DNA of 41,494 nucleotides from Pseudobdellovibrionaceae bacterium (GCA_023250715.1 JAHFAF010000010.1:1-41494); one strand, 5' to 3'. Positions 1 through 21,366 are shown, counted from the first letter of the stretch. Notes: a model not told the origin generated them from the letters alone. Program-made: numbers and translations.

Positions 1-902
1 AATGCGGCCTCTTCCTCGTAGGTCCCTGTATTTCTCGGGTGGGGGCGCAGAATTACATTAGCGCTAGCAAGCGCCGGCGAGCTGTTATCTCGAAGGGCGC
101 CAAGCCACTTGGTCACGAAGCGCCCCTCTTTCGGCGCACATAAAGAGGAGGAGCCAAGATAGAGAATCGTCTTTCGGTTAGGCTCGAGCCCGAGGCTTCG
201 AAGGAATGACTCCCTTCCCAAGGAAGGCCGTAGCCGCTCGAACTCCTCAAAGCGGTACGCACCCACTGCTAGCACCTTTTCAGGTGGCATTCCATGGATC
301 CGAACTGCTTCGTCAACCTGGACATCATTCCAAACGATCATCTGGTCCGGATGGCGAAGCAACGCCCCTTTCGTCGTCAAGTTGTCCCAGCTGAAAACTG
401 GGTAGCAGATCGGAATGCCCAAAGCGTGTGCGCAGCGGAGATAGTCGTACTGATGGACGTGCGCCGAAAAGACGAGTGGAGTTACCAGTATCACGTCCGG
501 CTTGCAGCGTTTTATCTCCCGCAAAATATGGGAGGGAAGAGGGACCGAATTATCCAGCTCCTTTAGAAAAGCATCGAGCCGCTGAAGGGACTTTGGATTC
601 CTCTTCTTCAAGATGGGTGCCACAAGCGGATCCACCAAATGCTCCAAGCGCTCCTGCAAGAAAGTATGGTGATCGAAACGGGAATCCAGAAAGAAAATCT
701 GGTTCCGTGTCCAGCGAAGGGTATTCGCAATCTTGAGCCAATCTCCCCGCTCTTCAAAATCAAAATCCAAGGAATCTTTCTTCTTTTTCAAGCCCGAAGA
801 CTCGTTGGCCATTACAGTCTCGTGCCCTCGTGAGCGCAGCTCTGCTAACACATCGGTAAAATGACGAAGGTGACTGGGCTCAGCGAAAAAGAGAATTTTC
901 AA
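1..902 (-). CDS. Partial CDS (3' end runs off the left edge): GT-B-like glycosyltransferase-type protein, paralogue of the N-terminal half of the 7798..10086 product
   Basis: Absent from the supplied ORF track because it has no stop inside the window. My own minus-strand translation, with codon first bases at 902, 899 and so on, is open for 300 codons to the edge. TTG at 902..900 gives MKILFFAEPSHLRHFTDVLAELRSRGHETV..., colinear with MGVLFVIKSV...HLCERGHSVKV of the 762-aa protein. Shared motifs: PVFSWDNLTTKG vs ATLSWDNLTTKG, ILYLGSS vs LLYLGSA, LRPHPRN vs ARPHPSN. Confidence 0.8.
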   Translation of the reverse strand, partial: MKILFFAEPSHLRHFTDVLAELRSRGHETVMANESSGLKKKKDSLDFDFEERGDWLKIANTLRWTRNQIFFLDSRFDHHTFLQERLEHLVDPLVAPILKKRNPKSLQRLDAFLKELDNSVPLPSHILREIKRCKPDVILVTPLVFSAHVHQYDYLRCAHALGIPICYPVFSWDNLTTKGALLRHPDQMIVWNDVQVDEAVRIHGMPPEKVLAVGAYRFEEFERLRPSLGRESFLRSLGLEPNRKTILYLGSSSLCAPKEGRFVTKWLGALRDNSSPALASANVILRPHPRNTGTYEEEAA

Positions 903-1035
903 GCGGTATACCCCATCCTCGCAAGGAGGAAAATCCGGCGGCCATCCTGCTCCCCCAACTCCTGGAGAAACCGCTGGTTCCCATTTTTGGGCCGCCTGCG
1001 CCTTATCTCCCTTTCTCCGAAAAACATCCCTTCTC

Positions 1036-2079
1036 CTAACGGCTTTGCTCAAGAATAAACGCCCGCGCCGAGTGAATTCCTGAACGCGACACCGAGTTTC
1101 TTTCAATAAACTCGTTCAAAACGGACAGAGGATACTCCTGCTCTACCACCCTGCCCACTAGAGATTTCCATTCTCCAAGCAAAAGAGGCAAGGGCTCATA
1201 CCGGGAGAGAGGGAGACCTTCACCCGCAACCACCCCCACCGGTACGCCGCTCAAGGAAGCATCAACCGCGATCGTCGAAGGCGTTGTGATCACAAGAGAT
1301 GCACCATGGATCAGGTCCAGAGCCCGGGGACAGCCTGGATCACGGGGGTCCAGGATCTCCAACCGGGACTTCCTTACCCAATCTTCCTTTCGTAGGGCGC
1401 TCGACCAATTTCCGGCAGAATGGGGCTTCAAACTCACTTCATAATCCTGAAAGCCCTCCAAGATCTCTTTCAGGTGTTCTACAAATGCGGTCCGATATGC
1501 CGAGGAATACCTTCCCCAATGCAGATTCTCAAAGACACAGATCCTCCTCACCGGCGGAAGGATGGATCTCGGAATGTCTCGCAGGATACCCACAGGCTGA
1601 ATTTTCTTTCGGGTGCAATTGGGAAGTCTCGGATCAAACATTTCCGGAGTCCCCCAAGTTAGGACGAAGTCGGAAGCGAATCGAACCCGCTCTAAGGGAT
1701 ACTCCTCGTCGGAATAATTGAGGCCGATATTTTCTAATCCGTGCTGGAGAGTGAAGGTAGGAATCCGCAGCGCTCGCGCCACCCGAATAAATCTGTAGCC
1801 ATGCCGATGGGCTTTGACGTTGCAATCGCAGGCTGTGACAACCGCTCGAGATTTGAGAAGGATCCGGACCCAGCTCAAGGGATTACGCTGATTTACCCGC
1901 GACCTAACGAGTTTTTCCGAGTCAAGGCTACGACAGATCTGAGGATACGCACGCTCAAGAGATTGCGTAACAACCGCCTGTACCGGTACCCCCTCTTCCA
2001 CAAAAGATCGCATGAGAGGAATGAGAAGTTCCCCGTCCTGGATCAAATGAAAGTAAAAGAGAATAGGTTGGGAGGACAC
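1036..2079 (-). CDS. Hypothetical sugar/polyol-phosphate transferase, distantly TagF/capsule-synthesis-like (GT-B-type C-terminal half)
   Basis: 347-aa ORF, co-directional with its neighbours. TLQHGLENIG resembles the (W)HG catalytic-His motif of CDP-glycerol glycerophosphotransferases. LKPHSAG and ITTPSTIAVDASLSGVPVGVV resemble the C-terminal nucleotide-sugar-binding half of GT-B enzymes. The family assignment is weak. Confidence 0.55.
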   Translation of the reverse strand: MSSQPILFYFHLIQDGELLIPLMRSFVEEGVPVQAVVTQSLERAYPQICRSLDSEKLVRSRVNQRNPLSWVRILLKSRAVVTACDCNVKAHRHGYRFIRVARALRIPTFTLQHGLENIGLNYSDEEYPLERVRFASDFVLTWGTPEMFDPRLPNCTRKKIQPVGILRDIPRSILPPVRRICVFENLHWGRYSSAYRTAFVEHLKEILEGFQDYEVSLKPHSAGNWSSALRKEDWVRKSRLEILDPRDPGCPRALDLIHGASLVITTPSTIAVDASLSGVPVGVVAGEGLPLSRYEPLPLLLGEWKSLVGRVVEQEYPLSVLNEFIERNSVSRSGIHSARAFILEQSR

Positions 2080-6829: not shown

Positions 6830-7714
6830 TTGAATACATCCCCCAGCAAAATGCTACTTATTGCGGGCCCCTGTGTGATCGAGGACGAAGGGCTCACCCT
6901 AGAAATAGCTGCGGAATTGAAGCGCCAATTGCAGGATCTTCCGGTCGACTTTTACTTTAAAGCGTCCTTCGACAAAGCAAACCGATCCTCTATCGAAGGT
7001 TTTCGCGGGCCCGGACTGACTGGGGGGCTAAGGACGCTGACTAAAGTCAGGTCCACCCTCGATCTGAAGGTCCTCACCGATGTGCACGAAACCCATCAAG
7101 TCGTTCCCGTTGCTGAGGTGGTCGACTTTCTTCAGATTCCCGCGTTCCTCTGTCGGCAAACCGACTTGATTTTGGAAACGGCACGGGCTGCTTTGCGAAT
7201 GAAACGCCGCTTGAATATCAAGAAAGGACAGTTTCTCGCGCCATGGGATACTAAAAACATCATTCAGAAGGTGGGCGATGTAGTGGTGAAGGAGAAGGCC
7301 CTCCCACCAAAGGATTGGTTTTGTCTCACTGAGCGCGGAGTCTCTTTTGGTTACAACACGTTGGTAGTAGATATGACGACCTTTCAAACCATTCACGGAT
7401 TTGGCGTGCCTGTTGTTTTCGACGCCACCCATTCCGTTCAGGCGCCGGGGGCCGGCCCCGGCGGAATGAGCACGGGAGGAAAACGGGAGAACATTGAAGT
7501 CCTTGCCCGCGCCGCAATTGCCTCCGGCGCGGATGGTATTTTCATGGAGTGCCACCCGAACCCCGCGATCGCAAAAAGCGATGGCCCCAATGCCTTCTAT
7601 CTCGACAAGATCAAGCCGTTCATCGAGCAATTGCTACAGATCCGCGCCACTGTTTCGTCCCTTCCCAAGCTACTGCCCGAAGCGCTATTAACGGAGAAGC
7701 GCCAAGGGAACTAG
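6830..7714 (+). CDS. kdsA: 3-deoxy-8-phosphooctulonate (Kdo-8-P) synthase, metal-dependent class
   Basis: FKASFDKANRSS, LTDVHE, LQIPAFLCRQTDL, IKKGQFLAPWD, LTERGVSFGYNTLVVDM, FDATHSVQ, FMECHPNP. IAGPCVIEDE has Cys where non-metallo enzymes such as E. coli have Asn, as in the Aquifex-type metalloenzyme. TTG start at 6830 preceded by GGAGA. Confidence 0.95.
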   Translation: MNTSPSKMLLIAGPCVIEDEGLTLEIAAELKRQLQDLPVDFYFKASFDKANRSSIEGFRGPGLTGGLRTLTKVRSTLDLKVLTDVHETHQVVPVAEVVDFLQIPAFLCRQTDLILETARAALRMKRRLNIKKGQFLAPWDTKNIIQKVGDVVVKEKALPPKDWFCLTERGVSFGYNTLVVDMTTFQTIHGFGVPVVFDATHSVQAPGAGPGGMSTGGKRENIEVLARAAIASGADGIFMECHPNPAIAKSDGPNAFYLDKIKPFIEQLLQIRATVSSLPKLLPEALLTEKRQGN

Positions 7715-7797: not shown

Positions 7798-10086
7798 TCA
7801 GTTTAAGCTCAAGGCGCCCCGGGACATGCGAATAACGGCGTTCAAGGAAGCCCCTGCCTCAGCCTGATTGGATTTATTCGCAACCCGTCGCAGGTGAACT
7901 CCAAAGATCTCTCCCTTCCATTGAAACTCGTCCCAGCTCCGATTTTCACTAATCCAAACCATGTTTTGAGCGGGTATTCCCAAAACAGAAGGGACGAAGG
8001 ATCGAAGAAAACGGGGAAACTGCGCTAGTGTTTCATCATAGGACGCCTTCTTACTTCCGCCCTGAACGAACTGAAGTATTTCGCATTTGGATTCTTTCGA
8101 AAATCGCCGATAAATTCGATATCCTGTATCCCTCGCTTTAATTCTAAGCAGCGAAGCAAGAACATTCACCCATACATAAAGAGCTCGACGAGCCACGAGT
8201 TTTCGATGAAGCCAACGGATGAGCTCTCTCCCCCTGAAAGAGCGGTCGAGCTCCGGCGTAAAATCCAGATCCGCCTTCACGACTTTTGCCAAGTCAACGA
8301 GCATACAATGCACGGAAGGAAATCTCTGGTACTTTGACACATTCAGAGGATCCCAACCCGATCCAAAAAAAGCCAAGCCCTTCTCACGCACATGAGCGAG
8401 GAGCTCGGATGCCCATTGAGGACGAAGAATGAAAAAATCCGGATCCAGAACTAGTAGAAACCGGCTTTGGATCTCCTTCATCCCTCTCATGAGACCCGCC
8501 CCATGATGATAACTTCCTGCATCGTATGGGTTAGGCGTCGCAGCCACACCTGAAATCACTTTAATTTCCCCGTTCGATTCCTCGGCCAAGCTTTCCAATT
8601 TTTCTAGTGGGACCCCGTCATTGTTCACGATCACCCACCGCGGACGGCAGGTATTCAATTCCCCAGTGAGGGAGATATTCTTAAGTAACAGGTCTTCCGA
8701 CTTGTATGCGACGGTCAAGATCGTAAGCCTCGTCAGACTCTCTATCGCATCGGCCGCATGACGGCCCGCCGGCATTTCCTTTCCAAGAGGTCGGGTAAAA
8801 GCCAGGGAGAAAGAATTGCGATACGCCTCCAGCGGGTCCTCTCCTTGAATGCAAATCTCCTCGAGTTGAGTGACCGCTTCTGCAATGCCCTTGGAAAGGT
8901 AAAGCGTTCTTGCGGTTACTAGCTCCTGGAAATGTTGGGCCTGCGTCTGGGTTATTCCAAATTCCGGGAGAACCAAGGAGAGACAAGGTTTTCCTATGAC
9001 GATGGCGTCTATCATCCCGGTTGTATTAAGCCCAACGGTGGCTTCGCTATGGCTAACACTTTGATAAAAATCGAGCAGAGACTCATCGGTATCGGGCAAT
9101 GCTCCCGCCGGTGGCCAGATTCGAAACTCAGAGCTCGCCTCCCGCTCGTATGCCGCGAAATTAGAGGGATGAGGGCGAGCCAATATTTGAGTTTCCTGTA
9201 TTTTACGGTGGGAACTCTCCTTGAGCGCCTTGGCCAGTGCTCGAACTACCCACACCTCGTTTTCGGAAATACTCGGCGCCGAGCCGAGATAAAGTAGAAA
9301 GGGTTTTTCCGGATCTAGCCCCACTTTCTTGCAGAACTCGACGCGGTCGGTGCGCGAATCGTCCACCGTCCACCATTTGTCGAAGAAAGGAGAACCTGTG
9401 ATCCGAATACGATTCGGATTAATCTTATGAATGGAAACCGCTTGCTCGAAATGAATTTTATTCCAAACCAATAAGAGATCGGGCTCGACGTGAAAAAGCC
9501 CTTTCGTCGTTAGATTATCCCAGGAAAGGGTGGCCACCACCGTGGGAATCCTCAACCGCTTCGCCGCCTTTATGTATTCCGTCTCCAGCGAATAGACCAT
9601 GTTCACCGGAGAGCCCACAACGAGATCGGGCCGCTCCTCACAAAGATACCTCAGAACGTTCGGATTACAGGGGCCAACGCGCTCGATCAAGCGGAAAATT
9701 TCGTCCATCCATTCCAGAGCCAAAACATTCTTCACGAACGGGAACTTAACGAAGCGCTTTAGAATGTTTGAAAGATACCCTTCCCAACGATCTCGGTAAT
9801 AGCTCGACTGATCCTTTCTCCTCAGATAGCTGGCGAATGTACGCAGCTCCCGTATTTTGGCAAGCCAGTGAATCGAAGATTCCTCTGGCCGCACTACCTG
9901 CCTCTCTACGGAAAGTTTCCCCGGAAATCGATCCAATAGAGGATTTAATCCAGGGTAGCCGACAATTTTTTCAGTGGAAGAGCAAACGATCACTTTGACG
10001 GAGTGCCCCCTCTCGCAAAGGTGCTCGATGGTGGAGCTATGGTAGGAGAAATTCCTTACCGACTTTATGACAAAAAGCACGCCCAT
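7798..10086 (-). CDS. Two-domain glycosyltransferase: N-terminal GT-B-like module (SWDNLTTKG / RPHP motifs) fused to a C-terminal GT2-like module
   Basis: 762-aa ORF. The N-terminal ~330 aa are colinear with the partial gene at 1..902. The C-terminal part has a GT-A/GT2 signature: LTILTVAYKSEDLL, WVIVNNDG, LVLDPDFFILRP (DxD). Last gene of the 20166..7798 operon, 4 nt after the cytidylyltransferase gene. Confidence 0.7.
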   Translation of the reverse strand: MGVLFVIKSVRNFSYHSSTIEHLCERGHSVKVIVCSSTEKIVGYPGLNPLLDRFPGKLSVERQVVRPEESSIHWLAKIRELRTFASYLRRKDQSSYYRDRWEGYLSNILKRFVKFPFVKNVLALEWMDEIFRLIERVGPCNPNVLRYLCEERPDLVVGSPVNMVYSLETEYIKAAKRLRIPTVVATLSWDNLTTKGLFHVEPDLLLVWNKIHFEQAVSIHKINPNRIRITGSPFFDKWWTVDDSRTDRVEFCKKVGLDPEKPFLLYLGSAPSISENEVWVVRALAKALKESSHRKIQETQILARPHPSNFAAYEREASSEFRIWPPAGALPDTDESLLDFYQSVSHSEATVGLNTTGMIDAIVIGKPCLSLVLPEFGITQTQAQHFQELVTARTLYLSKGIAEAVTQLEEICIQGEDPLEAYRNSFSLAFTRPLGKEMPAGRHAADAIESLTRLTILTVAYKSEDLLLKNISLTGELNTCRPRWVIVNNDGVPLEKLESLAEESNGEIKVISGVAATPNPYDAGSYHHGAGLMRGMKEIQSRFLLVLDPDFFILRPQWASELLAHVREKGLAFFGSGWDPLNVSKYQRFPSVHCMLVDLAKVVKADLDFTPELDRSFRGRELIRWLHRKLVARRALYVWVNVLASLLRIKARDTGYRIYRRFSKESKCEILQFVQGGSKKASYDETLAQFPRFLRSFVPSVLGIPAQNMVWISENRSWDEFQWKGEIFGVHLRRVANKSNQAEAGASLNAVIRMSRGALSLN

Positions 10087-10090
10087 TGCG

Positions 10091-10810
10091 CTAAGCTCTC
10101 GCCATTAGCGTTTCCGCTAGGAAAAAATCTAATGGAGTATTGATGTCGACTGATTCTTCATCTGACATCTCAAAGGCGAAAACCGTTTTCCCGATCGTCG
10201 ACCGGTACCTGCTCAAAACCCTGGGCCTGGTAATGTAGATGGAAGCGTTTTGAATAAAAACGGGCTCGAGCTGATGATAGGCCAAGGTGTGAGATTGAGA
10301 GTCCCGCTTCTGCACATAAGGCTCGGCAAACTCTCCCTTCACCTTCCACATCTTGTAAGGGTGCTCGGAACACTTTCGAATCGATCGTAAGGAATCCACC
10401 CTGGGCGCAGCCAGCATCTTCTTTACCGCCCTATCGATGGTAGAAGCTTTTCTGAAAGGGGTCGTGGGATAAAGATTCACGACGAGATCCGGAACATACC
10501 CCTCGTTTTCACTCAACCAGCCCAATGCGTGTTGGTGAAATTCTAGCTCCGTCGATCCCGAGCCCGCAAGACCCCTCGGACGAAGAAAAGGGACTTCTGC
10601 CCCATACTTTCGCGCAATCGCGGCAATTTTTTCCGAATCAGTCGAGACAATAACGCGATCTACTAGCTTTGCCTTCAAGGCAGCTTCTATGGTGTAGACG
10701 ATAAGGGGCTTCCCGCCGAGAGAGCGGATATTCTTATTCTTCACCCGTTTTGATCCCGAGCGGGCGGGAATGAGGGCCAGAACTTTCGGCTTATCAGCCT
10801 TCCTTCCCAT
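10091..10810 (-). CDS. Acylneuraminate cytidylyltransferase family (NeuA/PseF/LegF-type CMP-nonulosonate synthetase)
   Basis: VLALIPARSGSKRVKNKNIRSLGGKPLIVYTIEAA, VIVSTDSEKIAAIARKYGAEVPFLRP. Length 239 aa. Overlaps the transketolase gene by 17 nt. Confidence 0.85.
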   Translation of the reverse strand: MGRKADKPKVLALIPARSGSKRVKNKNIRSLGGKPLIVYTIEAALKAKLVDRVIVSTDSEKIAAIARKYGAEVPFLRPRGLAGSGSTELEFHQHALGWLSENEGYVPDLVVNLYPTTPFRKASTIDRAVKKMLAAPRVDSLRSIRKCSEHPYKMWKVKGEFAEPYVQKRDSQSHTLAYHQLEPVFIQNASIYITRPRVLSRYRSTIGKTVFAFEMSDEESVDINTPLDFFLAETLMARA

Positions 10811-12749
10811 TTACCTTTTCCAACACTCGTATGCTAAGTGTCTCTCCATCCAATCGATGTGCTCTCAATGCCTCCCAAGGAGTTCCGCATACGGGGAACC
10901 CCTCCACGCCAAATTTCGTAAAGGTGAGCTTTCCGATAAGTCCCTCACGGTTCATAAAGCTAAAGAGATGATCTCCCAAGCCCCCGAACGGCGAATGATC
11001 CTCGAGCACGAAGAAATTCTCGCAATGGGCCAGCGTTTCCCTGAGCCATTCTTTATCGAAACGATTGAGCCAAGGCAGATTGACCACCTTCAGTGTTACA
11101 CCCTTCGCCTTCAGCAACTCAGCGGCTGTAAGCGCCTCATTCAGCATCACCGGGCCATAGGCAAAGAGAACATTTTCTCTTCCTTCGCTCAACGCGAACC
11201 CACGCCCCACTTCGAGCCGGTAGTTCTTGGGCAAATCGATAATACGCGGAGAGGGACCGATATTCAGCCGAACCATGCAGGACTCTTTCGCGTCGAGCAC
11301 CATGTAACGGGTGATGAGTCTCGCTTCCGCCCCAGAGGAAGGTTGCAGAATCGTCACATTCGGAAACGCCCCAAAGAGAGAAATATCCCGAGCTGATTGA
11401 TGGGATTTTCCAGGCCCCGCCGGAATCACGCCTGCAAAATGGCAGGCAAAGATGATTTTTCTATTTTCGGAAAGGGCGTTGTAAATCTGTTCGTTCCCCC
11501 TAGCCGCCAAGAAGTTCGCGAAGGAATTGCAAATCGGCAAAAGTCCCTGAAGAGCAAGACCGCTCGCCATTGAGACCATATCCTGCTCGGCAATTCCCAT
11601 CTCGATAAAGCGCTTCGGGTAGGTATCTTCGAATTCACGAATGCGACAGTCCAAAGAGAGGTCCGCATCCAAAAGGACGAAGTCTTCCTTTTCTTTCGCA
11701 AGCTCTACCAGTGCCTTGCCATAAGAGTCCGCGACAAACTCGCTCGTGTTCTTACTCACCGCGAGCGCACTCGACGGTTTTTTCTCCGGGAGCGCCTCGA
11801 CCCTTTGAGGCTCCGCGATCTTTAATCGCGTAAAATCCGAACAAATCCCATTCCAAAGCTCGTCATAAGCACGCACGTAGGAGGCATCGTCCGGCGCCCC
11901 CGCATGCCACCGGTAGTAGCCATTATTCTCCTCGAGTGCTACCGGGTGCTCCATGAAGGAGACGCCACGACCTTTGATCGTATCGCAAATCAAAAACTTT
12001 GGTTTATCCTGAACAGCGTTCAGTTTTGCGAAACACTCCTCAAGTCTTAGGTAATCATGTCCGTCACAACGTTCCACATGCCAGCCGAAGGAGGAGAGTT
12101 TTTTCGGCAAATCACCTAAAGAAACAATGCGATCGATGTAACGATCGGACTGCAGTTTATTGTGGTCCATGACGACGATAAAATCGTGCCGCTTTTGTTG
12201 CACCGTCGACTGCAAGGCCTCAAAGTTTTCACCTTCTTGCCACTCGCCGTCGCCGGTCATGACGACAACCTTTCCTTGCCAGCCCTGATAGCGCTTTGCG
12301 AACGCCATCCCGCGCGCCTTCGAGATTCCCATCCCCAATGAACCCGTATTTGCCTCTATTCCCGGAATTTTAACGTCCGGGTGCCCATCTAATCCGCCGA
12401 GCCGACGCAGGGCCAGAAACTTTTCCTCAGGCACAATTCCCATCGAGTAAAGAGCGGCATACTGCCCAGGTACATCATGACCCTTCGACGAAAAATAGAT
12501 ATCGCGATCCGGGTTCTCGATGCCCGCATGCCTCAAGTTCAAATGGCGGTAATAGAGGAAAATTACGATGTCCATCGCACTGAAACTCGAACCCAAATGC
12601 CCAGAACCCGCCCGCTTCACCTCGAAAAGGGTGTTCATGCGACACATCTTCGCGATTAAAGGCAATGTCTCTTTCCAATCGAGTCCCGCTTTTGAAACGC
12701 GATCAAATTCCGACTTCGGGATGAATTTCATTTCCATGCTCTTCCTCAA
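10794..12749 (-). CDS. Transketolase-family ThDP enzyme with fused N- and C-terminal 'split transketolase' halves
   Basis: GSGHLGSSFSAMDIVIFLYY, SSKGHDVPGQYA, ThDP/Mg motif VVVMTGDGEWQEGENFEAL. Pyrimidine-binding half: FIEMGIAEQDMVSMASGLALQG. C-terminal domain: VRLNIGPSP...LKVVNLPWL. Confidence 0.85.
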   Translation of the reverse strand: MRKSMEMKFIPKSEFDRVSKAGLDWKETLPLIAKMCRMNTLFEVKRAGSGHLGSSFSAMDIVIFLYYRHLNLRHAGIENPDRDIYFSSKGHDVPGQYAALYSMGIVPEEKFLALRRLGGLDGHPDVKIPGIEANTGSLGMGISKARGMAFAKRYQGWQGKVVVMTGDGEWQEGENFEALQSTVQQKRHDFIVVMDHNKLQSDRYIDRIVSLGDLPKKLSSFGWHVERCDGHDYLRLEECFAKLNAVQDKPKFLICDTIKGRGVSFMEHPVALEENNGYYRWHAGAPDDASYVRAYDELWNGICSDFTRLKIAEPQRVEALPEKKPSSALAVSKNTSEFVADSYGKALVELAKEKEDFVLLDADLSLDCRIREFEDTYPKRFIEMGIAEQDMVSMASGLALQGLLPICNSFANFLAARGNEQIYNALSENRKIIFACHFAGVIPAGPGKSHQSARDISLFGAFPNVTILQPSSGAEARLITRYMVLDAKESCMVRLNIGPSPRIIDLPKNYRLEVGRGFALSEGRENVLFAYGPVMLNEALTAAELLKAKGVTLKVVNLPWLNRFDKEWLRETLAHCENFFVLEDHSPFGGLGDHLFSFMNREGLIGKLTFTKFGVEGFPVCGTPWEALRAHRLDGETLSIRVLEKVNGKEG

Positions 12750-14212
12750 ACTCCTTTGGGGTCCACGTTGTGATAAACGACCTTCAAATTGGAATAGACA
12801 TCCAGCGCCTCCGGCCCGGGCTCACGCCCGCCATTTCCGGAATTCTTTACGCCACCGAAGGGCATGTGTGGCTCGCTCCCATGAGTACCGGCGTTGATAC
12901 TAACAACTCCCGACTGAACTCGACGGGCAAATTCATAAGCACGGTGGTAATTTTTCGTGTGAATTGCGGCCGTCAGCCCATACTCGCTTTCATTCGCCAG
13001 CTTCACCGCGTGATCAAAATCACGAACCCGGTAGAGACAAGTAATGGGCCCGAAAAGCTCATTTCTGGAAATCTCATCGCCAGGCTGCGCCTCTTCGATC
13101 AAAGTGGGGCTTATGTAATAACCATTTCGGTGCTTCTCATCCGTTAGACGAGTGCCTCCGACGAGAACCTTGGCCCCTGCTGCTTTCGCCTGTTCTATCG
13201 AAGCAAGCATATTCGCGAGCTGCTTTTGGTTAATCACCGGCCCATAATCGTCTTCATCGGCCGGTCCTACCTTTAAAGAAGCAATCTTTTCCAATAGCTG
13301 TGTTTTGAACTTTTCGTAAACGGAATCGAAAACCAGCAACCGACTCGAAGCGGCGCACCGTTGACCGGCATTGCTGAATGAAGAGAGTAGCGCCCACTTT
13401 ACGGCGTTATCCAAATCGGCATCCTCACAAACCACGAGCGCATTCTTCCCACCGAGCTCCAAGCAGACTTTTGCGAGCCTCTCCCCGGCAGCTTTTGCTA
13501 TTTGCCTGCCGACGTTGGTCGAACCCGTGAAGCTAATGAGCTGCACTCTAGGATGCGCGACGAGCGGCGCCCCCACTTCATTCCCAAATCCATGGAGAAT
13601 CGTAAGTACTCCAGGCGGGAGCGCCGACTCGGAAATGACTTTTCCCATGATCCATGCAGTGAGTGGAGTATCCTCGGACGCCTTCAAAATGGCGGCATTC
13701 CCGCAGATGATTGCAGGGAAAACCTTCCAAGCTACATTTGCGACCGGAGTATTAGCCGCAATGATGAGACCGCAAACCCCAACAGGCTCTCGCACCACCA
13801 CTGGATATCGATTCGCTACTCCGCTCACCGTGGTACGCCCGAAAAACCTTTGCCCTTCACCCGCCATAAAGAAGGCTTGAGAAATCGCGGCCCCTGTTTC
13901 TCCGAGAGCATCTTTCAGGGACTTCCCCGTCTCTAATGCCACAATCTGTGCAATTTCTTTTTGGCGAACCTGCATCCTTTGCGCGATATCGAATAAAACC
14001 TCTCCTCGCTTTACTCCCGGAGTAGCGGCCCACAAGGACTGAGCCCGCTCCGCAACCTCTACCGCGCGATCCACATCCTCTTTTCCAGAACGAGCCAATT
14101 CGCAAATCTGCTCGCCATTATGGGGATTCAACTTGGGTATGTACGCTCTCGAATGGGGCGCCACATCCTCATTCCCGATAAAATTCAAAACTCTCGTTAC
14201 CACGCGGTCCAC
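12746..14212 (-). CDS. NAD(P)+-dependent aldehyde dehydrogenase
   Basis: FTGSTNVGRQI, catalytic-Glu motif CLELGGKNALVV, catalytic-Cys motif SNAGQRCAASSRLLV, ELFGPI, PFGGVKNSGNGRE-like tail. GTG start at 14212, with alternative in-frame starts slightly downstream. 4-nt overlap with the transketolase gene. Confidence 0.9.
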   Translation of the reverse strand: MDRVVTRVLNFIGNEDVAPHSRAYIPKLNPHNGEQICELARSGKEDVDRAVEVAERAQSLWAATPGVKRGEVLFDIAQRMQVRQKEIAQIVALETGKSLKDALGETGAAISQAFFMAGEGQRFFGRTTVSGVANRYPVVVREPVGVCGLIIAANTPVANVAWKVFPAIICGNAAILKASEDTPLTAWIMGKVISESALPPGVLTILHGFGNEVGAPLVAHPRVQLISFTGSTNVGRQIAKAAGERLAKVCLELGGKNALVVCEDADLDNAVKWALLSSFSNAGQRCAASSRLLVFDSVYEKFKTQLLEKIASLKVGPADEDDYGPVINQKQLANMLASIEQAKAAGAKVLVGGTRLTDEKHRNGYYISPTLIEEAQPGDEISRNELFGPITCLYRVRDFDHAVKLANESEYGLTAAIHTKNYHRAYEFARRVQSGVVSINAGTHGSEPHMPFGGVKNSGNGGREPGPEALDVYSNLKVVYHNVDPKGV

Positions 14213-15024
14213 CCTCCATCGACTACTAGGTTAGATCCGGTCATATACGACGAGGCATTCGATGCGAGAAATACAACAGCACCATTCATCTCGTGAGATT
14301 CCGCCATCCGCCCGACGGGAATGCGCTTCGTATACTCCTCCAAAAATTCTTTATCCTGACTAACGTAGATTCCGGCCGGCGTAAGCGTATTCACCCGAAC
14401 CCCCTTTTTCGCCCAATAGGTAGAAAGGTAACGCGTGAGATTCAAGACGGCCGACTTCGTCGTCGCATAAGCGGCGGGTTTGTACCACTCCTGCCCCGCA
14501 CGGCGCTTGTATTCGTAAATATCTTGATTCGGAGAAACTAGCCCGTACGTAGAAGCGATATTGATGATACTTCCCCGACCCGCCACTGCCATCGCTCCAC
14601 CAAAAACCTGGCAGGCAATCCAAGTTCCCTTCACGTTGACCGCAAGCACGCGATCCAAGGATTTTTCTGGGTACGTCTCAAACGGCCCATTTTCTTCCGC
14701 CGGGGCATCAGGCGGCGAATCGATAGCGGCATTGTTGATGAGAATCTCAGGAACCCCCCACATCTGCTGAATCTCCGCTAAGCAGCGCTCTAAGTCTTCG
14801 CGTTGGGTAATATCCGTACGAAATAAACGAATTTGGCCGGATGCCGTCAAGGTTTCCCACCGTTCAGGAAAAGGGCCTTTCTGCACTGAAAGGAGATCAA
14901 TCGCGGCAACTCGGGCGCCATACGAGGCGAGTGCGGCACAAAACTGTTTACCCAATAATCCAGCACCGCCTGTGACTACCGCTACTTTGTCCCGCAATGA
15001 AAAGAGATCGTCCATTGGCCTCAA
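14197..15024 (-). CDS. Short-chain dehydrogenase/reductase, PtmA (flagellin-modification protein A)-like
   Basis: VAVVTGGAGLLGKQF (TGxxxGxG), NNAA, an insertion before the catalytic YATTKSAV (YxxxK), and GSNLVVDGGWTAW at the C-terminus. Confidence 0.85.
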   Translation of the reverse strand: MRPMDDLFSLRDKVAVVTGGAGLLGKQFCAALASYGARVAAIDLLSVQKGPFPERWETLTASGQIRLFRTDITQREDLERCLAEIQQMWGVPEILINNAAIDSPPDAPAEENGPFETYPEKSLDRVLAVNVKGTWIACQVFGGAMAVAGRGSIINIASTYGLVSPNQDIYEYKRRAGQEWYKPAAYATTKSAVLNLTRYLSTYWAKKGVRVNTLTPAGIYVSQDKEFLEEYTKRIPVGRMAESHEMNGAVVFLASNASSYMTGSNLVVDGGWTAW

Positions 15025-16145
15025 GCATTGGGCTGAGGCGCCCGTCCCGCGGACGGTTTCGGCGACAGACCCGCTAATACCCCTTCTTGGACCTGACTTA
15101 ATGCTTCCAGGCTGATGGGCTCGTCCTCGAGGATAGTTTTCTGAACCGTGGTTCCCAAAAGGCTATCTAATGTGTAAGGCGGCAACCCATCGCCAGGCGA
15201 CTTCAGGCAAAGATCCTCGCGCTGTAATGTTTGGCCCGCGAAAAGATCCCTTGCCGCCACGACCTTCTTTCCCATCTTAATGAGCGGCTCGCGCTCACTG
15301 GGATGTTGCTTCTTCCCCGGGTTACCGAGTGCTTCACGCGTGCGCTGTAAATCACGCACCATTTTTCGCAGACCCGTTGGCTCTAAGGAAAACGCGTGGT
15401 CGGTGCCTTTCCAGGCCCGGTTCAAAGTAAAATGTTTTTCGACGACTCGAGCCCCCAACACGAAGGCCGCCACCGCCATGGCAATTCCATTGTCATGCGA
15501 GGAAAGGCCAATGACGATATCGGGGAACGCCGCTCGGAAAGTAGTAACCACGTTCAAGTCCAATTCGTCGAACTTGGCCGGATAGCCAGCCGTACATTGC
15601 AAAATCGTAAGCTGTGTATTGATCGGCATGATGGCGTCATAGGCACGCTGAACATCTTCCATATCTCCGCCGCCAGTGCTAACCACCATGGGCTTTCCAA
15701 GCCGCGCCACGTGCTTCAAGAGGGGAACATTCTTTAGATCTCCGGACGCAATCTTATAGGCCGGAATATCTAGCTTCGCCAAGAAGTCAGCACTCTTGAA
15801 ATCAAACGCGGTCGAAAAAAAAGTGATGCCCAATTGCTTCGCGTACTCTTTCAGCTCCACATGTTGTTCCCAACCGAATTCCAATGCTTCTCGATGAGCC
15901 CCATAAGTTGCGCCGTACGCGTTCTCGCTATTGTAGGGTTTGTTGTACATCGCCCTCGTGAAGAGGGTGACGTTATCGCGCTTTTGTAATTTCACCGCGT
16001 TCGCGCCACATTCCTTGGCCGCTTGAAATAATTTTTTGCAGGTCTCCACGTTACCTTGGTGATTGTGTCCGATTTCGGCAATCACATAGCAATCGGTGGA
16101 ATCGCTGATAAGCCGGCCATCGATGGTCAATTGTCGAATTGTCAT
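15021..16145 (-). CDS. NeuB-family PEP-condensing ulosonic-acid synthase (NeuB/PseI/LegI type) with C-terminal SAF domain
   Basis: CYVIAEIGHNHQGNVETCKKLFQAAKECGANAVKLQKR, KIASGDL, GLSSHD, EKHFTL, and a SAF-like VVAARDLFAGQTLQREDLCLKSPGDG. The track ORF begins at GTG 16160. ATG at 16145 preceded by GAGGAG seems the better start. Confidence 0.85.
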   Translation of the reverse strand: MTIRQLTIDGRLISDSTDCYVIAEIGHNHQGNVETCKKLFQAAKECGANAVKLQKRDNVTLFTRAMYNKPYNSENAYGATYGAHREALEFGWEQHVELKEYAKQLGITFFSTAFDFKSADFLAKLDIPAYKIASGDLKNVPLLKHVARLGKPMVVSTGGGDMEDVQRAYDAIMPINTQLTILQCTAGYPAKFDELDLNVVTTFRAAFPDIVIGLSSHDNGIAMAVAAFVLGARVVEKHFTLNRAWKGTDHAFSLEPTGLRKMVRDLQRTREALGNPGKKQHPSEREPLIKMGKKVVAARDLFAGQTLQREDLCLKSPGDGLPPYTLDSLLGTTVQKTILEDEPISLEALSQVQEGVLAGLSPKPSAGRAPQPNA

Positions 16146-16232
16146 AATCTCCTCACCCACAAAAGCTCTAACCCCTGGTTAAGGTTGGCAGGCTAGTCTA
16201 AGGAGGTTTTGAAGACAAGCGGGGAATTCCCA

Positions 16233-16979
16233 CTATAATGCATTGCGCATTCTCTCTCGGACCACCTCGAGATCCTCCGGCGTATCCACCCCAACGGACA
16301 CGGAATCGACTTTGGCCAGTCCGATAGAAATCCCATTTTCCAGAGCCCTTAGCTGCTCCAGACACTCCCCCACCTCCAAGGGTGAAAGGGGGAGGGATCG
16401 GATTTTGAAAAGGGTGGACCTTCTGTAGACATAGAGGCCCAGGTGCCGGTAGCAAGAGAAGGGACCAGATGCAGGTTGCCGGCTGTAGGGAATGGGGAAA
16501 CGGGAAAAATAAAGAGCTCTTCCCTCTTTATCCGCCAGGGCCTTCACCACCGAACGGTTCTCAAGCTCGGAGTTAGAAAGGAGGGGGGTCATGGCCGAGG
16601 CCATTTCAAAGTGGCCCTGAGTGACTAACGACAAAGCGGCCTCGATCGTGTGCGACTCCATTAAGGGCTCATCCCCTTGAACGTTGACATAGACATCAGC
16701 GTCCGTTTGATCCGCGACGGCCGCCACTCTATCCGTGCCACTAAGCAAAGATTCCGGGGTCATCATCGCTTCGCCACCGAAGCTTTTCACCGATTCGAAA
16801 ATTTGAGTGTTATCGGTCGCAACGATTACCCGATCAACGCCTTTAGCGCCGCAGACGCTTTGATAAACCCACTGAATCATCGGCTTTCCACAAATATCGG
16901 CCAGGGGTTTTCCCGGTAGACGCGTAGACCGGAATCGAGCGGGAATGACCGCGATGATTCGAGACTTATCAGTCTTCAT
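16233..16979 (-). CDS. kdsB: 3-deoxy-manno-octulosonate cytidylyltransferase (CMP-Kdo synthetase family)
   Basis: MKTDKSRIIAVIPARFRSTRLPGKPLADICGKPMIQWVY, VIVATDN, YVNVQGDEPL. The track ORF (to 17159) has a 60-aa low-quality N-terminal extension that overlaps the upstream gene. ATG at 16979 gives the canonical ~249 aa. Confidence 0.85.
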   Translation of the reverse strand: MKTDKSRIIAVIPARFRSTRLPGKPLADICGKPMIQWVYQSVCGAKGVDRVIVATDNTQIFESVKSFGGEAMMTPESLLSGTDRVAAVADQTDADVYVNVQGDEPLMESHTIEAALSLVTQGHFEMASAMTPLLSNSELENRSVVKALADKEGRALYFSRFPIPYSRQPASGPFSCYRHLGLYVYRRSTLFKIRSLPLSPLEVGECLEQLRALENGISIGLAKVDSVSVGVDTPEDLEVVRERMRNAL

Positions 16980-18063
16980 TCCGATGACCCTTGAGGGGAG
17001 ATCCAATGAGATGGCGGTACTCGCTAGGCATAAGCTGGTTCTGATTTCGAAGCGAAAGCAATGCCCGCTTGATAAGACGGCCAGCGAGGCGAAGTGAGGA
17101 CGCCGGAGACTTCTCTTTCTTATCCACGAACCGGGAATTGAGATCCGTGTAGGGGCCATTTAGGACAACAATTCTTTGAAGCTCGAAATAATGAGAGAGG
17201 ATTTCGCTCACCAAAGAGAGTTGCGCGTTATGGCCCGAGCGATCGCGGTTATGACTATAAAGTTTCGTGACCCCTCCCTCCCAAAGTTTTCTTGCGTATC
17301 CCTCTACCTGGCCCGTCGTCATCTCCTGGAAGGAGACCATATTTATCGCAAGATCCAGGGGCACATCCCAGATCTCCTGAAAACTTTCCTGAGGGACAAA
17401 GACGAAGTCATAAGCGCTGGTAGTTTCGCGGAACTCCTTCACCGCATCCTTACCATCCACGAAAAGGACTCTACTGTCAGGGAACGCAGTCATGAGATAC
17501 ACGGCGGAAAAAAGAAAGACTTCGGGAAAGTCCACGATCACGTAGGTCATGTTCGGTACATGCTGCTTCAACTGGTAGGGGAATCCACCCCAGCCCGCTC
17601 CGATTTCACACACGACCGGCTTTTTCTTCTGCCCGCGCAGAGCACTCAACACCTGGCCCTTATCCAAAGCGATTAAGGACTCGTAAAATTTCAAAGTATC
17701 TAAATTCACCAGCTGGCCGTCGAGATTGTGGCCAAATCCCCCTAGAATAGGTGACTCGGGAACGAAGAGATTGTTCGAATCAGCTTTCCGCAGCTCCTTC
17801 AACTTTTGCTTGAACTCCTCTTTTCGCTTTACCTGTGAACTTCGATAATCATAGGTTTTTAGACCGGTAAGATGAAACGTGTGCTGGCGAAGCTTCTGAA
17901 TGAGAAGAGGGGATGCCTCAAGCAGGTAATCGAATCCCGCCAGCTCCTCTCGCCAGTAATCACTGGGCAATGTACAAGAGGGCATATTGTTATGTTTACT
18001 TATTATTTCAAGTACATGATTGCGAACTCGTTGATAGTTCTCCGCTCCGTTTGTCATTGTCAT
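16969..18063 (-). CDS. Putative SAM-dependent (sugar O-) methyltransferase
   Basis: VCEIGAGWGGFPYQLKQHVPNMTYVIVDFPEVF is a glycine-rich motif I followed by an acidic residue at the end of beta-2. 364 aa with a helical N-terminal extension. The family call is tentative. Confidence 0.55.
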   Translation of the reverse strand: MTMTNGAENYQRVRNHVLEIISKHNNMPSCTLPSDYWREELAGFDYLLEASPLLIQKLRQHTFHLTGLKTYDYRSSQVKRKEEFKQKLKELRKADSNNLFVPESPILGGFGHNLDGQLVNLDTLKFYESLIALDKGQVLSALRGQKKKPVVCEIGAGWGGFPYQLKQHVPNMTYVIVDFPEVFLFSAVYLMTAFPDSRVLFVDGKDAVKEFRETTSAYDFVFVPQESFQEIWDVPLDLAINMVSFQEMTTGQVEGYARKLWEGGVTKLYSHNRDRSGHNAQLSLVSEILSHYFELQRIVVLNGPYTDLNSRFVDKKEKSPASSLRLAGRLIKRALLSLRNQNQLMPSEYRHLIGSPLKGHRNED

Positions 18064-20298: not shown

Positions 20299-21366
20299 AT
20301 GGCTGGCGAAATTGGTTGCCGGAAAGGCAAAACAACTCGAGGAAATGAAGTGGACTTAGAGACCCCTCATCCGGAAACCCATCGAAAGAAAGCCACGGCA
20401 AAAGAGACGCTTTTGAACACGGTCCGGGAGGTCCTACGCCTCGAAGGAGAAGCGCTTCTTACTCTGCAAAAGAATATCAACGCGAACTATTATGAAGCCC
20501 TAGAGCTGATGGCGAAGTGCTCTGGAAAAATTGTCGTCACCGGAGTAGGGAAGTCAGGGATCATCGCTCGAAAAATCGCAGCAACACTTACCAGTACCGG
20601 AACCGTCGCCATGTTTCTTCATCCTGCCGACGGCATGCATGGCGATCTCGGTGTAGTGAATGAGCTCGATATTGTTATCGCCATTGGCAAGAGCGGGGAG
20701 AGCGACGAGATGGTCGCGTTAATCCCCGCACTGAAGCGAATCGGTACGAAGATCATCGCTATTACCGCGCAAGCCGAATCCAGCCTCGCCGTCTCAGCCG
20801 ATATCGCTCTGATTACCCCCGTGGAACGGGAAGCATGCCCTTTAAATTTGGCCCCTACCGTCTCTACCACTCTCGCGCTCGCCGTAGGCGACGCGCTTGC
20901 CGTAGCCCTGATGGAGATGAAGAATTTTCGTTCGGAAGACTTTGCCAAGTATCACCCCGGCGGAAAACTCGGAAAAAGGCTTCTTCTACGAGTCGTAGAC
21001 CTCATGATCCCCGTGGAAAAGTGCGCCGTTTTGAGTTCCGATCGGGCAAACATGGAAGACGTGATATTAGCCCTCTCCGAATTCGGCCAAGGGATCGTTC
21101 TCTTTTCTAAGAATGGTGACCTTCAAGGAATTCTTACCGACGGAGACATCCGCCGCCTCCTGCAGAAGCATCGAAACAAATTGTTTGATACTCCCCTCTC
21201 GAGCGCGATTAACCGTACCCCTCTTTCCATCCCCTCCGACTTCATGGCGGTGGAGGCGCTAAGATTTATGGAAGAAAGAAAGCGCCCTCTCAATGTGGTC
21301 CCTGTCGTACAAGGGAAGCAAGCCATCGGAGTCGTTCGACTCCACGATCTTCTGGCGGTGTTTTAG
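20299..21366 (+). CDS. kpsF: Arabinose-5-phosphate isomerase (SIS + tandem CBS domains)
   Basis: GKIVVTGVGKSGIIARKIAATLTSTGT, FLHPADGMHGDLG, AIGKSGES, and a C-terminal CBS pair (GIVLFSKNGDLQGILTDGDIRR, IGVVRLHDLL). The start is uncertain: ATG 20299 gives 355 aa, and GTG 20350 preceded by AGGAAA gives 338 aa. Confidence 0.9.
   Translation: MAGEIGCRKGKTTRGNEVDLETPHPETHRKKATAKETLLNTVREVLRLEGEALLTLQKNINANYYEALELMAKCSGKIVVTGVGKSGIIARKIAATLTSTGTVAMFLHPADGMHGDLGVVNELDIVIAIGKSGESDEMVALIPALKRIGTKIIAITAQAESSLAVSADIALITPVEREACPLNLAPTVSTTLALAVGDALAVALMEMKNFRSEDFAKYHPGGKLGKRLLLRVVDLMIPVEKCAVLSSDRANMEDVILALSEFGQGIVLFSKNGDLQGILTDGDIRRLLQKHRNKLFDTPLSSAINRTPLSIPSDFMAVEALRFMEERKRPLNVVPVVQGKQAIGVVRLHDLLAVF

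Follow-up and report, generated by a model that had tools for sequence, protein, structure and literature searches.

What does a transketolase (TK) do between the genes for a sialic-acid-type synthase and its CMP-activating enzyme? In this study we focus on a 41,494-nucleotide stretch of DNA from a Pseudobdellovibrionaceae bacterium (GCA_023250715.1, JAHFAF010000010.1:1-41494; hereafter the window), where a classical SDR, an aldehyde dehydrogenase (ALDH) and a TK are encoded between a NeuB-family synthase and a CTP_transf_3 CMP-synthetase. Profile searches of the translated ORFs confirm the original observation of this trio. The plus-strand ORFs inside the region are shadows of these genes (Table 1).

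Table 1. Genes of the region, their predicted products and the sequence evidence for them. Positions are counted from the first letter of the window.
Coordinates	Strand	Predicted product	Sequence evidence
7798-10086	-	762-aa putative CMP-ulosonate transferase: N-terminal module with SWDN..KG and RPHP motifs, plus a second module	No Pfam hit; weak BFO_1060-family hit
10091-10810	-	CMP-ulosonate synthetase (NeuA/PseF-like, CTP_transf_3)	PF02348, 104.5 bits; PseF 150.8, below cut-off of 205.7
10794-12749	-	TK-like ThDP enzyme, short/fused type, 647-651 aa; proposed C2-clipping enzyme	Transketolase_N (PF00456), Transket_pyr (PF02779) and Transketolase_C (PF02780), in order; NF004559 368.6, below 488; TIGR00232 152.9, below 682; DXS (TIGR00204) 165.5, below 465.95
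12746-14212	-	NAD(P)+ ALDH; proposed to oxidise the aldehyde left by the TK to a carboxylate	PF00171, 509.9 bits; best NCBIfam hits alpha-ketoglutaric semialdehyde DH (NF042993, 425.5, far below 770) and 2,5-dioxovalerate DH; catalytic Glu (ELGGK, residue 252) and Cys (FSNAGQRC, residue 279)
14197-15024	-	Classical SDR; proposed to oxidise the penultimate hydroxyl of the ulosonic acid tail to a terminal ketol	PF00106/PF13561; best NCBIfam hit gluconate 5-dehydrogenase (161, below 279), also KduD and mannonate oxidoreductase; TGGAGLLG, NNAA and YATTK motifs, with an insertion of about 14 residues between the catalytic Ser and Tyr
15021-16160	-	NeuB-family ulosonate synthase with C-terminal SAF domain; 379 aa as maximal ORF, likely ATG start at codon 6	PF03102, 267.7 bits; PF08666; NeuB_NnaB 301.9, below 399.65; PseI 257.1, below 340.25
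16233-17159	-	KdsB-type CMP-Kdo synthetase, operon context specific to this window; real start probably near codon 67	NF003952 284.6, above 193; Pfam match starts at residue 69
16969-18063	-	NanM-type putative sugar O-methyltransferase, operon context	TIGR04371 93.1, above 44
10770-11396	+	Shadow ORF	
13371-13880	+	Shadow ORF	

Taken as maximal ORFs, the five genes from the synthase to the CMP-synthetase are spaced by -4, -16, -4 and -17 nt. These values depend on the start codon chosen: with the likely ATG or RBS-spaced starts (codon 4 for the SDR, codon 5 for the TK, giving the 647-aa protein), the junctions become small gaps or overlaps of less than 10 nt, and the genes remain tightly coupled.

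The original prediction described the TK as a fused split-type form rather than a housekeeping TktA, and this is correct. Among solved structures, the best relatives are human TK, which aligns over the full length (212 bits), and the two chains of the Carboxydothermus split TK, which align to residues 28-298 and 340-634, while E. coli TktA aligns only over the N-terminal part. Phylogenetic placement, which had been named beforehand as a test, shows that the family forms a clade separate from TktA, DXS and split TKs (99 SH-aLRT), the DXS sequences forming their own clade with a support of 100. Moreover, every genome tested has a separate housekeeping TK: five of five carrier genomes encode a canonical TktA (460-490 bits against 115-132 bits), and the genome of the window has split TKs.

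The ThDP-binding motif (GDGEW...DHN, residues 166-197) is present, and the residues aligned with the five catalytic histidines (human H37, H77, H110, H258 and H416) and the cofactor-activating glutamate (E366) are identical to them, and invariant or nearly so in 18 family members. In contrast, the phosphate-binding R318, S345 and R474 and the hydroxyl-reading D424 (human numbering) are replaced by VAD, DC, RLNIG and PAGPG, and this signature (RLxIG for the third motif) holds in all 82 family members examined. These replacements were read from a sequence alignment and not from a structure, and an Arg a few positions later (GPSPR) could still bind an anion.

The association of these genes is not due to chance. 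The same cassette, NeuB-(KdsC-type HAD phosphatase)-SDR-ALDH-CMP-synthetase-TK, recurs in more than ten phyla, including Bdellovibrionota, Fibrobacterota, Acidobacteriota, Chloroflexota, Myxococcota, Planctomycetota, Gemmatimonadota, Actinomycetota and Pseudomonadota. Among 43 loci with at least 6 kb of upstream sequence, NeuB was found in 39, ALDH in 40, the CMP-synthetase in 40, SDR in 31 and the phosphatase in 25. The NeuB of the window is 60-75% identical to the cassette NeuB in other phyla, and ALDH orthologues in cassettes elsewhere are 57-67% identical. Of 40 relatives examined, only one carries the cassette, as expected for an accessory glycan island; this nearest carrier (G009, same family) has NeuB-HAD-SDR-ALDH-TK-NeuA at 64-75% identity. 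The SDR is absent from the Chloroflexota cassettes, which would need an unlinked SDR, and one actinobacterial locus (L067) shows no ALDH nearby. No paper describing the cassette was found in the literature library searched.

The phosphatase is of KdsC/Kdn-9-P-phosphatase type. It is missing from the operon of the window, where the NeuB and SDR ORFs overlap, as from 18 of the 43 loci, although the genome has one KdsC-like gene elsewhere, on contig C36. The N-terminal module of the 762-aa putative transferase is homologous (E 2e-21) to the commonest unknown neighbour of the cassette, a protein of about 470 aa seen in 18 loci, and two copies follow the cassette in G009. Homologues of the NanM-type methyltransferase lie near the cassette in two other loci (L049 and L084) and in G009.

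In five Bacteroidota loci the ALDH position is taken by a class-III aminotransferase next to the TK, and Ignavibacteriota carry an aminotransferase-SDR-HAD-NeuB operon plus an unlinked TK. The nearest families of this aminotransferase (GSA aminomutase, GntE, acetylornithine aminotransferase and GABA aminotransferase) all interconvert a terminal aldehyde and a primary amine, and the TK sequences of the two types show no active-site difference. Some cassettes add a galactonate/gluconate-dehydratase-like enolase and a 2-dehydropantoate-reductase-family enzyme, which need a sugar-acid terminus such as the ALDH would make. Furthermore, one Bacteroidales genome (locus L090) encodes a single 931-aa CTP_transf_3-TK protein, a fusion known from this one MAG only.

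Our preferred, though still tentative, explanation is that the trio tailors a finished ulosonic acid. In this view, the NeuB-like synthase would condense PEP with an ordinary aldose phosphate, most simply mannose-6-P giving Kdn-9-P, and a KdsC-type phosphatase would free the terminal CH2OH. The SDR would then oxidise the penultimate hydroxyl, creating a CH2OH-C(=O)- ketol, the motif that a transketolase accepts as donor; the TK-like enzyme would cleave next to the ketone, carry off the C2 unit as dihydroxyethyl-ThDP and leave a terminal aldehyde, which the ALDH would oxidise to a second carboxylate. The resulting 3-deoxy-heptulosaric-type diacid (C7H10O8 if the start is Kdn) would be CMP-activated by the NeuA-like enzyme and installed in a surface glycan by the 762-aa transferase. 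Our analysis establishes the identity of the genes, their intact catalytic motifs, the conservation of the cassette and the remodelled substrate pocket of the TK, whereas the catalytic activities, the order of the steps, every substrate and the product are inferred; the chain length (C9 to C7, versus C8 to C6) and the stereochemistry are guesses. The absence of the phosphatase from this operon and from 18 of the 43 loci, of the SDR from the Chloroflexota cassettes and of an ALDH near the L067 TK counts against this scheme. The relatives of the enzymes are in line with this scheme, although the SDR, ALDH, TK and NeuB matches to named families are all below the curated cut-offs. The nearest characterised relatives of the SDR (gluconate 5-DH, KduD, galactitol DH and sorbitol DH) oxidise the carbon next to a terminal CH2OH, and those of the ALDH are 2-keto-acid semialdehyde dehydrogenases. 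The nearest solved structures of the SDR are 6uh2, gluconate 5-DH (1vl8), galactitol DH and sorbitol DH; the protein is an SDR but not a demonstrated gluconate 5-DH. It is possible, but not more than that, that the cassette is the first biosynthetic route to a CMP-activated 3-deoxy-heptulosaric acid, a Dha-like diacid, with a transketolase serving as a glycan-tailoring side-chain clipper on a finished nonulosonic acid and a sister version in Bacteroidota and Ignavibacteriota turning the same aldehyde into a 7-amino-heptulosonic acid.

The interpretation given in the original prediction is thus partly supported: the trio are dedicated pathway members and not central metabolism, but of the two roles proposed for them one is not supported and the other remains a less likely rival. 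This rival, which we consider unlikely but not excluded, is that the trio builds an unusual oxidised or chain-altered aldose before the condensation with PEP; for example, a 5-keto-aldonate could be cleaved to a tetruronic acid, which plus PEP would give a C7 heptulosaric acid directly. The position of the trio between the synthase and the CMP-synthetase, the gluconate-5-DH-like SDR, the absence of the phosphatase here and in other loci, and the lack of any other conserved precursor enzyme (2-epimerase, kinase, isomerase) in the cassette fit this view. However, an ALDH would destroy the aldehyde that the synthase needs, so it has no clear place in this order, and the alternative aminotransferase would do the same. 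Moreover, the phosphatase of most cassettes implies a terminally phosphorylated synthase product, the TK has lost its sugar-phosphate contacts, the dehydratase add-on of some loci points to tailoring after the condensation, and the fusion links the TK to the late steps.

Less likely still is the addition of a C2 unit by the TK onto a ketone or aldehyde made by the SDR, giving a branched or chain-extended sugar. This would resemble the ThDP-dependent two-carbon branching in deoxysugar pathways. The logic of an SDR followed by a ThDP enzyme is established for two-carbon branched sugars such as yersiniose and paulomycose, and the conserved histidines that hold the donor C1-OH fit a dihydroxyethyl-ThDP intermediate in either direction. 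Nevertheless, the product would be a ketol with no aldehyde, leaving a nearly universal ALDH without substrate and its replacement by an aldehyde-type aminotransferase unexplained, a donor such as Xu5P or F6P needs the phosphate contacts that this family lacks, and the branching enzymes described so far belong to the PDH-E1 or acetolactate-synthase types, not the TK type. The second role originally proposed, a glycolyl- or glyceroyl-type C2/C3 hydroxyacyl group for O-methylation by the two methyltransferases upstream in this operon, is very unlikely. TK-type enzymes can supply glycolyl units in some natural-product pathways, but no acyltransferase, ligase or carrier protein is conserved with the trio, no amino-sugar genes are in the cassette to receive an N-acyl group, and the methyltransferases are absent from most cassettes (NanM-like in 2-3 of 80 loci). 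Finally, ordinary metabolism placed here by chance is hardly credible: all three proteins belong to very large housekeeping superfamilies, but this reading is contradicted by the synteny, the separate housekeeping TKs, the distinct clade with its altered pocket, and the occurrence in only one of 40 relatives.

Among known systems, the Kdn pathway of Bacteroides thetaiotaomicron and Prymnesium parvum (Kdn-9-P synthase BT1714, Kdn-9-P phosphatase BT1713 and CMP-Kdn synthetase; PMC6200933) likewise has a NeuB-family synthase, a KdsC-type C0 HAD phosphatase, present in most cassettes although not in this operon, and a CTP_transf_3 CMP-synthetase, with no amino-sugar genes. It has, however, no SDR, ALDH or transketolase, which are conserved core members here. 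Compared with the transketolases (EC 2.2.1.1) of short mammalian/split type (human TKT, 4kxu; Carboxydothermus, 6yak/6yaj), the TK keeps the order of the three domains and the catalytic residues but not the phosphate clamp. Dha is the only familiar natural 3-deoxy-heptulosaric acid, with the same formula as the predicted product, and its biosynthetic enzymes and activated form are still listed as unknown (PMC3355719, PMC12168206); truncating Kdn would give the L-arabino isomer and not D-lyxo, and no bacterial glycan with such a sugar was linked to this cassette. A chemical precedent is found in the proposed tartrate route from 5-keto-D-gluconate, in which a dehydrogenase (idonate/gluconate 5-dehydrogenase) makes a terminal ketol on a sugar acid, a TK removes C2, and a semialdehyde dehydrogenase turns the aldehyde into a second carboxylate (for related papers, see PMC7970118 and PMC13527115). 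That route is catabolic or specialised metabolism of a C6 aldonate, not linked to a PEP-condensing synthase, CMP activation or glycan assembly. In Kdo8N formation in Shewanella, KdnB oxidises the terminal carbon of Kdo and KdnA transaminates the aldehyde, so that the tail of a finished ulosonic acid is tailored through an aldehyde, a logic that the aminotransferase variant of the cassette would follow; Kdo8N formation involves no carbon-carbon cleavage and no TK, its oxidase is a metal-dependent alcohol dehydrogenase, and its aminotransferase is of another class.

The window's minus strand carries a ten-gene operon running from 20166 to 7798, whose members are listed below in order of transcription. 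Taking maximal ORFs, the junctions of the trio (SDR, ALDH and transketolase, TK) are of -4, -16, -4 and -17 nt, and with the likelier ATG or RBS-spaced starts they are within 10 nt. The ALDH has its catalytic Glu and Cys, and the TK has the ThDP GDG...N motif. The SDR has its cofactor and YxxxK motifs, with an insertion before the Tyr: about 27 residues separate its catalytic Ser region (IAST) from the YATTK motif, instead of the usual ~13, and Pfam splits the match in two at this place, which may be a substrate-binding insertion. The observation made in the original prediction, that three such genes are tightly packed between a NeuB-like and a NeuA-like gene, is therefore confirmed. This includes the fused split-type architecture of the TK, since the best solved matches are human TK over the full length and the two chains of a split TK, which align to residues 28-298 and 340-634, while E. 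coli TktA aligns only over its N-terminal part.

Coordinates of the window's features and of the compared cassette loci; the first ten rows follow the order of transcription of the operon
Sequence	Coordinates	Strand	Feature
window		-	cytidylyltransferase-like/methyltransferase fusion
window		-	338-aa protein with only a faint GT-B hit
window	16969-18063	-	NanM-type sugar O-methyltransferase
window	16233-17159	-	KdsB-type CMP-Kdo synthetase
window	15021-16160	-	NeuB-family synthase with a SAF domain
window	14197-15024	-	classical SDR
window	12746-14212	-	aldehyde dehydrogenase (ALDH)
window	10794-12749	-	three-domain transketolase-like protein (TK)
window	10091-10810	-	PseF/NeuA-like CMP-synthetase
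window		-	762-aa putative transferase
window	6830-7714	+	kdsA-like gene
window	20299-21366	+	kpsF-like gene
window	3-1106	-	edge-truncated ORF, paralogue of the N-terminal module of the 762-aa putative transferase
window	15021-15024		NeuB/SDR junction, ORFs overlapping by 4 nt
L119 (closest relative, G009)	13657-14205		KdsC-type phosphatase gene between NeuB and the SDR
L028; also L060, L062, L074, L090; L102-L104	8159-16930 (L028)		sister cassette with a class-III aminotransferase, Bacteroidota and Ignavibacteriota
L090	9191-11986		single ORF fusing a CTP_transf_3 CMP-synthetase to the TK-like enzyme, Bacteroidales MAG
L004; L041, L044, L056, L067, L091	7089-9171 (L004)		sub-variant with dehydratase-like and reductase-family genes
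L038, L058 (G005) and L101	7440-10424 (L101)		Anaerolineales cassettes without adjacent SDR or phosphatase

The 191-nt overlap between the NanM-like and KdsB ORFs comes from the maximal ORF: the KdsB family match begins at residue 67-69, and the true start is probably about 200 nt downstream. As kdsA-like, kdsB-like and kpsF-like genes surround the cassette, the island seems to supply CMP-Kdo as well as the modified sugar. The edge-truncated ORF shares 29% identity over 230 aa (E 5e-32) with the N-terminal module of the 762-aa putative transferase, together with the SWDNLTTKG and RPHP motifs.

Homologues of the TK at 54-70% identity are abundant, and a scan of one genome per species found at least 594 carriers, almost all of them uncultured. 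In the first contexts read, from unrelated MAGs, the neighbours were NeuB, a KdsC-type HAD phosphatase, SDR, ALDH and CTP_transf_3. We then called ORFs in 80 loci and matched them to the window's proteins; among 43 ALDH-type loci with at least 6 kb upstream of the TK, NeuB was found in 39, ALDH in 40, the CMP-synthetase in 40, the SDR in 31 and the phosphatase in 25. The more than ten phyla concerned include Bdellovibrionota, Fibrobacterota, Acidobacteriota, Chloroflexota, Myxococcota, Thermodesulfobacteriota, Planctomycetota, Gemmatimonadota, Actinomycetota and Pseudomonadota. Among 40 relatives of the window's genome, only one (G009) carries the TK, so this is an accessory island, and its distribution, together with the grouping of the window's TK with Fibrobacterota and Muiribacteriota sequences, suggests horizontal spread. 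That relative, from the same family but another genus, has NeuB-HAD-SDR-ALDH-TK-NeuA at 64-75% identity, followed by two homologues of the 762-aa protein, and its phosphatase is 45% identical to that of locus L001. In the window the phosphatase gene is simply missing between NeuB and the SDR, and the genome's only KdsC-like gene lies on another contig (C36).

The TK is a dedicated paralogue. The window's genome has split TKs in addition, and all five other carrier genomes tested have a canonical TktA scoring 460-490 bits on PF00456, against 115-132 bits for this family. In a maximum-likelihood tree, the phylogenetic placement that the original prediction had called for, the family is one clade (SH-aLRT 99, stem length 3.4) apart from TktA, DXS and split TKs, and the window's sequence groups with a Pseudobdellovibrionaceae MAG and another assembly (98). 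When aligned to human TK, the five active-site histidines and the cofactor glutamate are conserved, whereas the residues that clamp the substrate phosphate (R318, S345, R474) and the Asp that reads the substrate hydroxyl (D424) are replaced by VAD, DC, RLNIG and PAGPG. All 82 family members examined share this signature, although it is read from sequence alignment only and a nearby conserved Arg (GPSPR) could still bind an anion. A search for longer fused forms of the TK (1141-3255 aa), which cannot see fusions of about 900 aa, gave only three unrelated fusions and no cassette fusion. One of these, a 1168-aa Micromonospora protein (P0121) 41% identical to this TK family, is fused to an NRPS condensation domain and hints at another, natural-product use of this TK lineage.

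Variants of the cassette constrain the chemistry. In five Bacteroidota loci the order is putative transferase, CMP-synthetase, TK, class-III aminotransferase, SDR, HAD and short NeuB (297 aa, no SAF domain), the ALDH being replaced by the aminotransferase. Ignavibacteriota have the TK standing alone, but carry an aminotransferase-SDR-HAD-NeuB operon elsewhere and lack orthologues of the ALDH. We considered that this standalone TK could be their housekeeping TK, and rejected the idea because each genome also has a canonical TktA and carries the aminotransferase operon elsewhere. The aminotransferase's nearest families all interconvert a terminal aldehyde and a primary amine: glutamate-1-semialdehyde aminomutase, GntE, acetylornithine transaminase and GABA transaminase. 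The TKs of this type are nested within the ALDH-type diversity, and a search for residues separating the two types found no clean active-site difference, the GPSPR/GPSPE difference marking only Ignavibacteriota. The simplest reading is that the TK product is an aldehyde, which one lineage oxidises and the other aminates.

Several cassettes add a galactonate/gluconate-dehydratase-like enolase-superfamily enzyme and a 2-dehydropantoate-reductase-family enzyme, which need a sugar-acid terminus of the kind the ALDH would create; actinobacterial versions also add a methyltransferase, a Stf0-like sulfotransferase and a TagF-like transferase. Moreover, one Bacteroidales genome, a single MAG, encodes a 931-aa protein in which CTP_transf_3 (residues 6-210) is fused to the TK (residues 284-918), and this ties the TK to the late, activation end of the pathway. 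The phosphatase is of KdsC/Kdn-9-P-phosphatase type, as in the characterised Kdn route, where a NeuB homologue condenses PEP with Man-6-P and a phosphatase then frees Kdn (PMC6200933). The other recurrent neighbours are glycan-assembly genes, namely unknown ~470-aa proteins homologous to the N-module of the window's 762-aa protein, FkbM methyltransferases, GT2/GT4, Wzt and Wzx, and a search among them for precursor enzymes (PMI, kinase, 2-epimerase) found none. Not every locus is complete: the Chloroflexota cassettes lack an adjacent SDR and HAD, those of Anaerolineales being NeuB-ALDH-CMP-synthetase-TK, with an SDR, a CTP_transf_3-HAD fusion (410 aa) and a short NeuB clustered about 65 kb away on the same chromosome in one such genome, and one actinobacterial locus (L067) shows no nearby ALDH.

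The SDR's nearest characterised relatives (gluconate 5-dehydrogenase, KduD, galactitol dehydrogenase and sorbitol dehydrogenase) oxidise the carbon next to a terminal CH2OH, a reaction that produces exactly the ketol a transketolase accepts as donor, and the ALDH's best family matches are 2-keto-acid semialdehyde dehydrogenases. All these matches are below the curated cut-offs, so they are leads, not assignments. Taken together, we propose the sequence synthase, phosphatase, SDR (ketol), TK (removing C2 and leaving an aldehyde), ALDH (second carboxylate) or aminotransferase (amine), then CMP activation and transfer. Starting from Kdn, the masses would run 268, 266, 206 and 222 Da, ending in a 3-deoxy-heptulosaric acid. 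By our derivation, 8-keto-Kdn viewed from its tail has the D-threo configuration that TK donors have, the truncated product would be the L-arabino isomer, and loss of the Asp that reads the donor C4 hydroxyl would fit a ring oxygen at that position; these stereochemical points are inference. While gene identities, catalytic motifs, cassette conservation and the remodelled TK substrate pocket come from the sequence comparisons, the enzyme activities, the substrates, the order of steps and the product are inferred, and the mechanism, though plausible, remains a hypothesis.

The interpretation given in the original prediction is partly supported: its view that the trio are pathway members rather than central-metabolism genes holds. 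Its suggestion that an unusual aldose is built before condensation remains possible but unlikely, as it is hard to reconcile with an ALDH or aminotransferase consuming the aldehyde, and with the phosphatase. Less likely still is the addition of C2 to a keto-sugar, which leaves the ALDH without a substrate and needs a phosphorylated donor; the aminotransferase swap, the dehydratase add-on and the CMP-synthetase-TK fusion bear on the choice between shortening and branching and favour an aldehyde made late in the pathway. Its other suggestion, a hydroxyacyl group that the methyltransferases would modify, is very improbable, since no acyl-transfer enzyme is conserved and the methyltransferases are not conserved with the trio. 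Decarboxylation of the 2-keto acid end by the TK, in the manner of DXS, was rejected on reasoning alone, because it would destroy the anomeric centre that the conserved CMP-synthetase needs.

Ulosonic acids (Kdo, sialic, pseudaminic and legionaminic acids) are key surface sugars, and all known routes to them lack a carbon-carbon cleaving step. A transketolase dedicated to reshaping such a sugar would be a new use of a textbook enzyme, and the ALDH/aminotransferase alternation gives two predicted products that can be told by mass. If the product is a heptulosaric acid, it would give the first enzymology for that sugar class and add an unrecognised acidic sugar to environmental cell-surface chemistry. 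The only well-known natural member, Dha of plant RG-II, still has no assigned biosynthetic enzymes or nucleotide form, which gives the prediction some wider interest, although the predicted isomer differs. Full-text searches found no paper describing a NeuB-TK-ALDH cassette in the literature that could be searched, and turned up only the tartrate and rifamycin TK precedents and reviews on Dha. The frame of the cassette is the phosphorylated Kdn-type pathway, with a conserved SDR-TK-ALDH insert that has no counterpart in any described ulosonic-acid route. The same three-enzyme logic is that of the proposed route from 5-keto-gluconate to tartrate.
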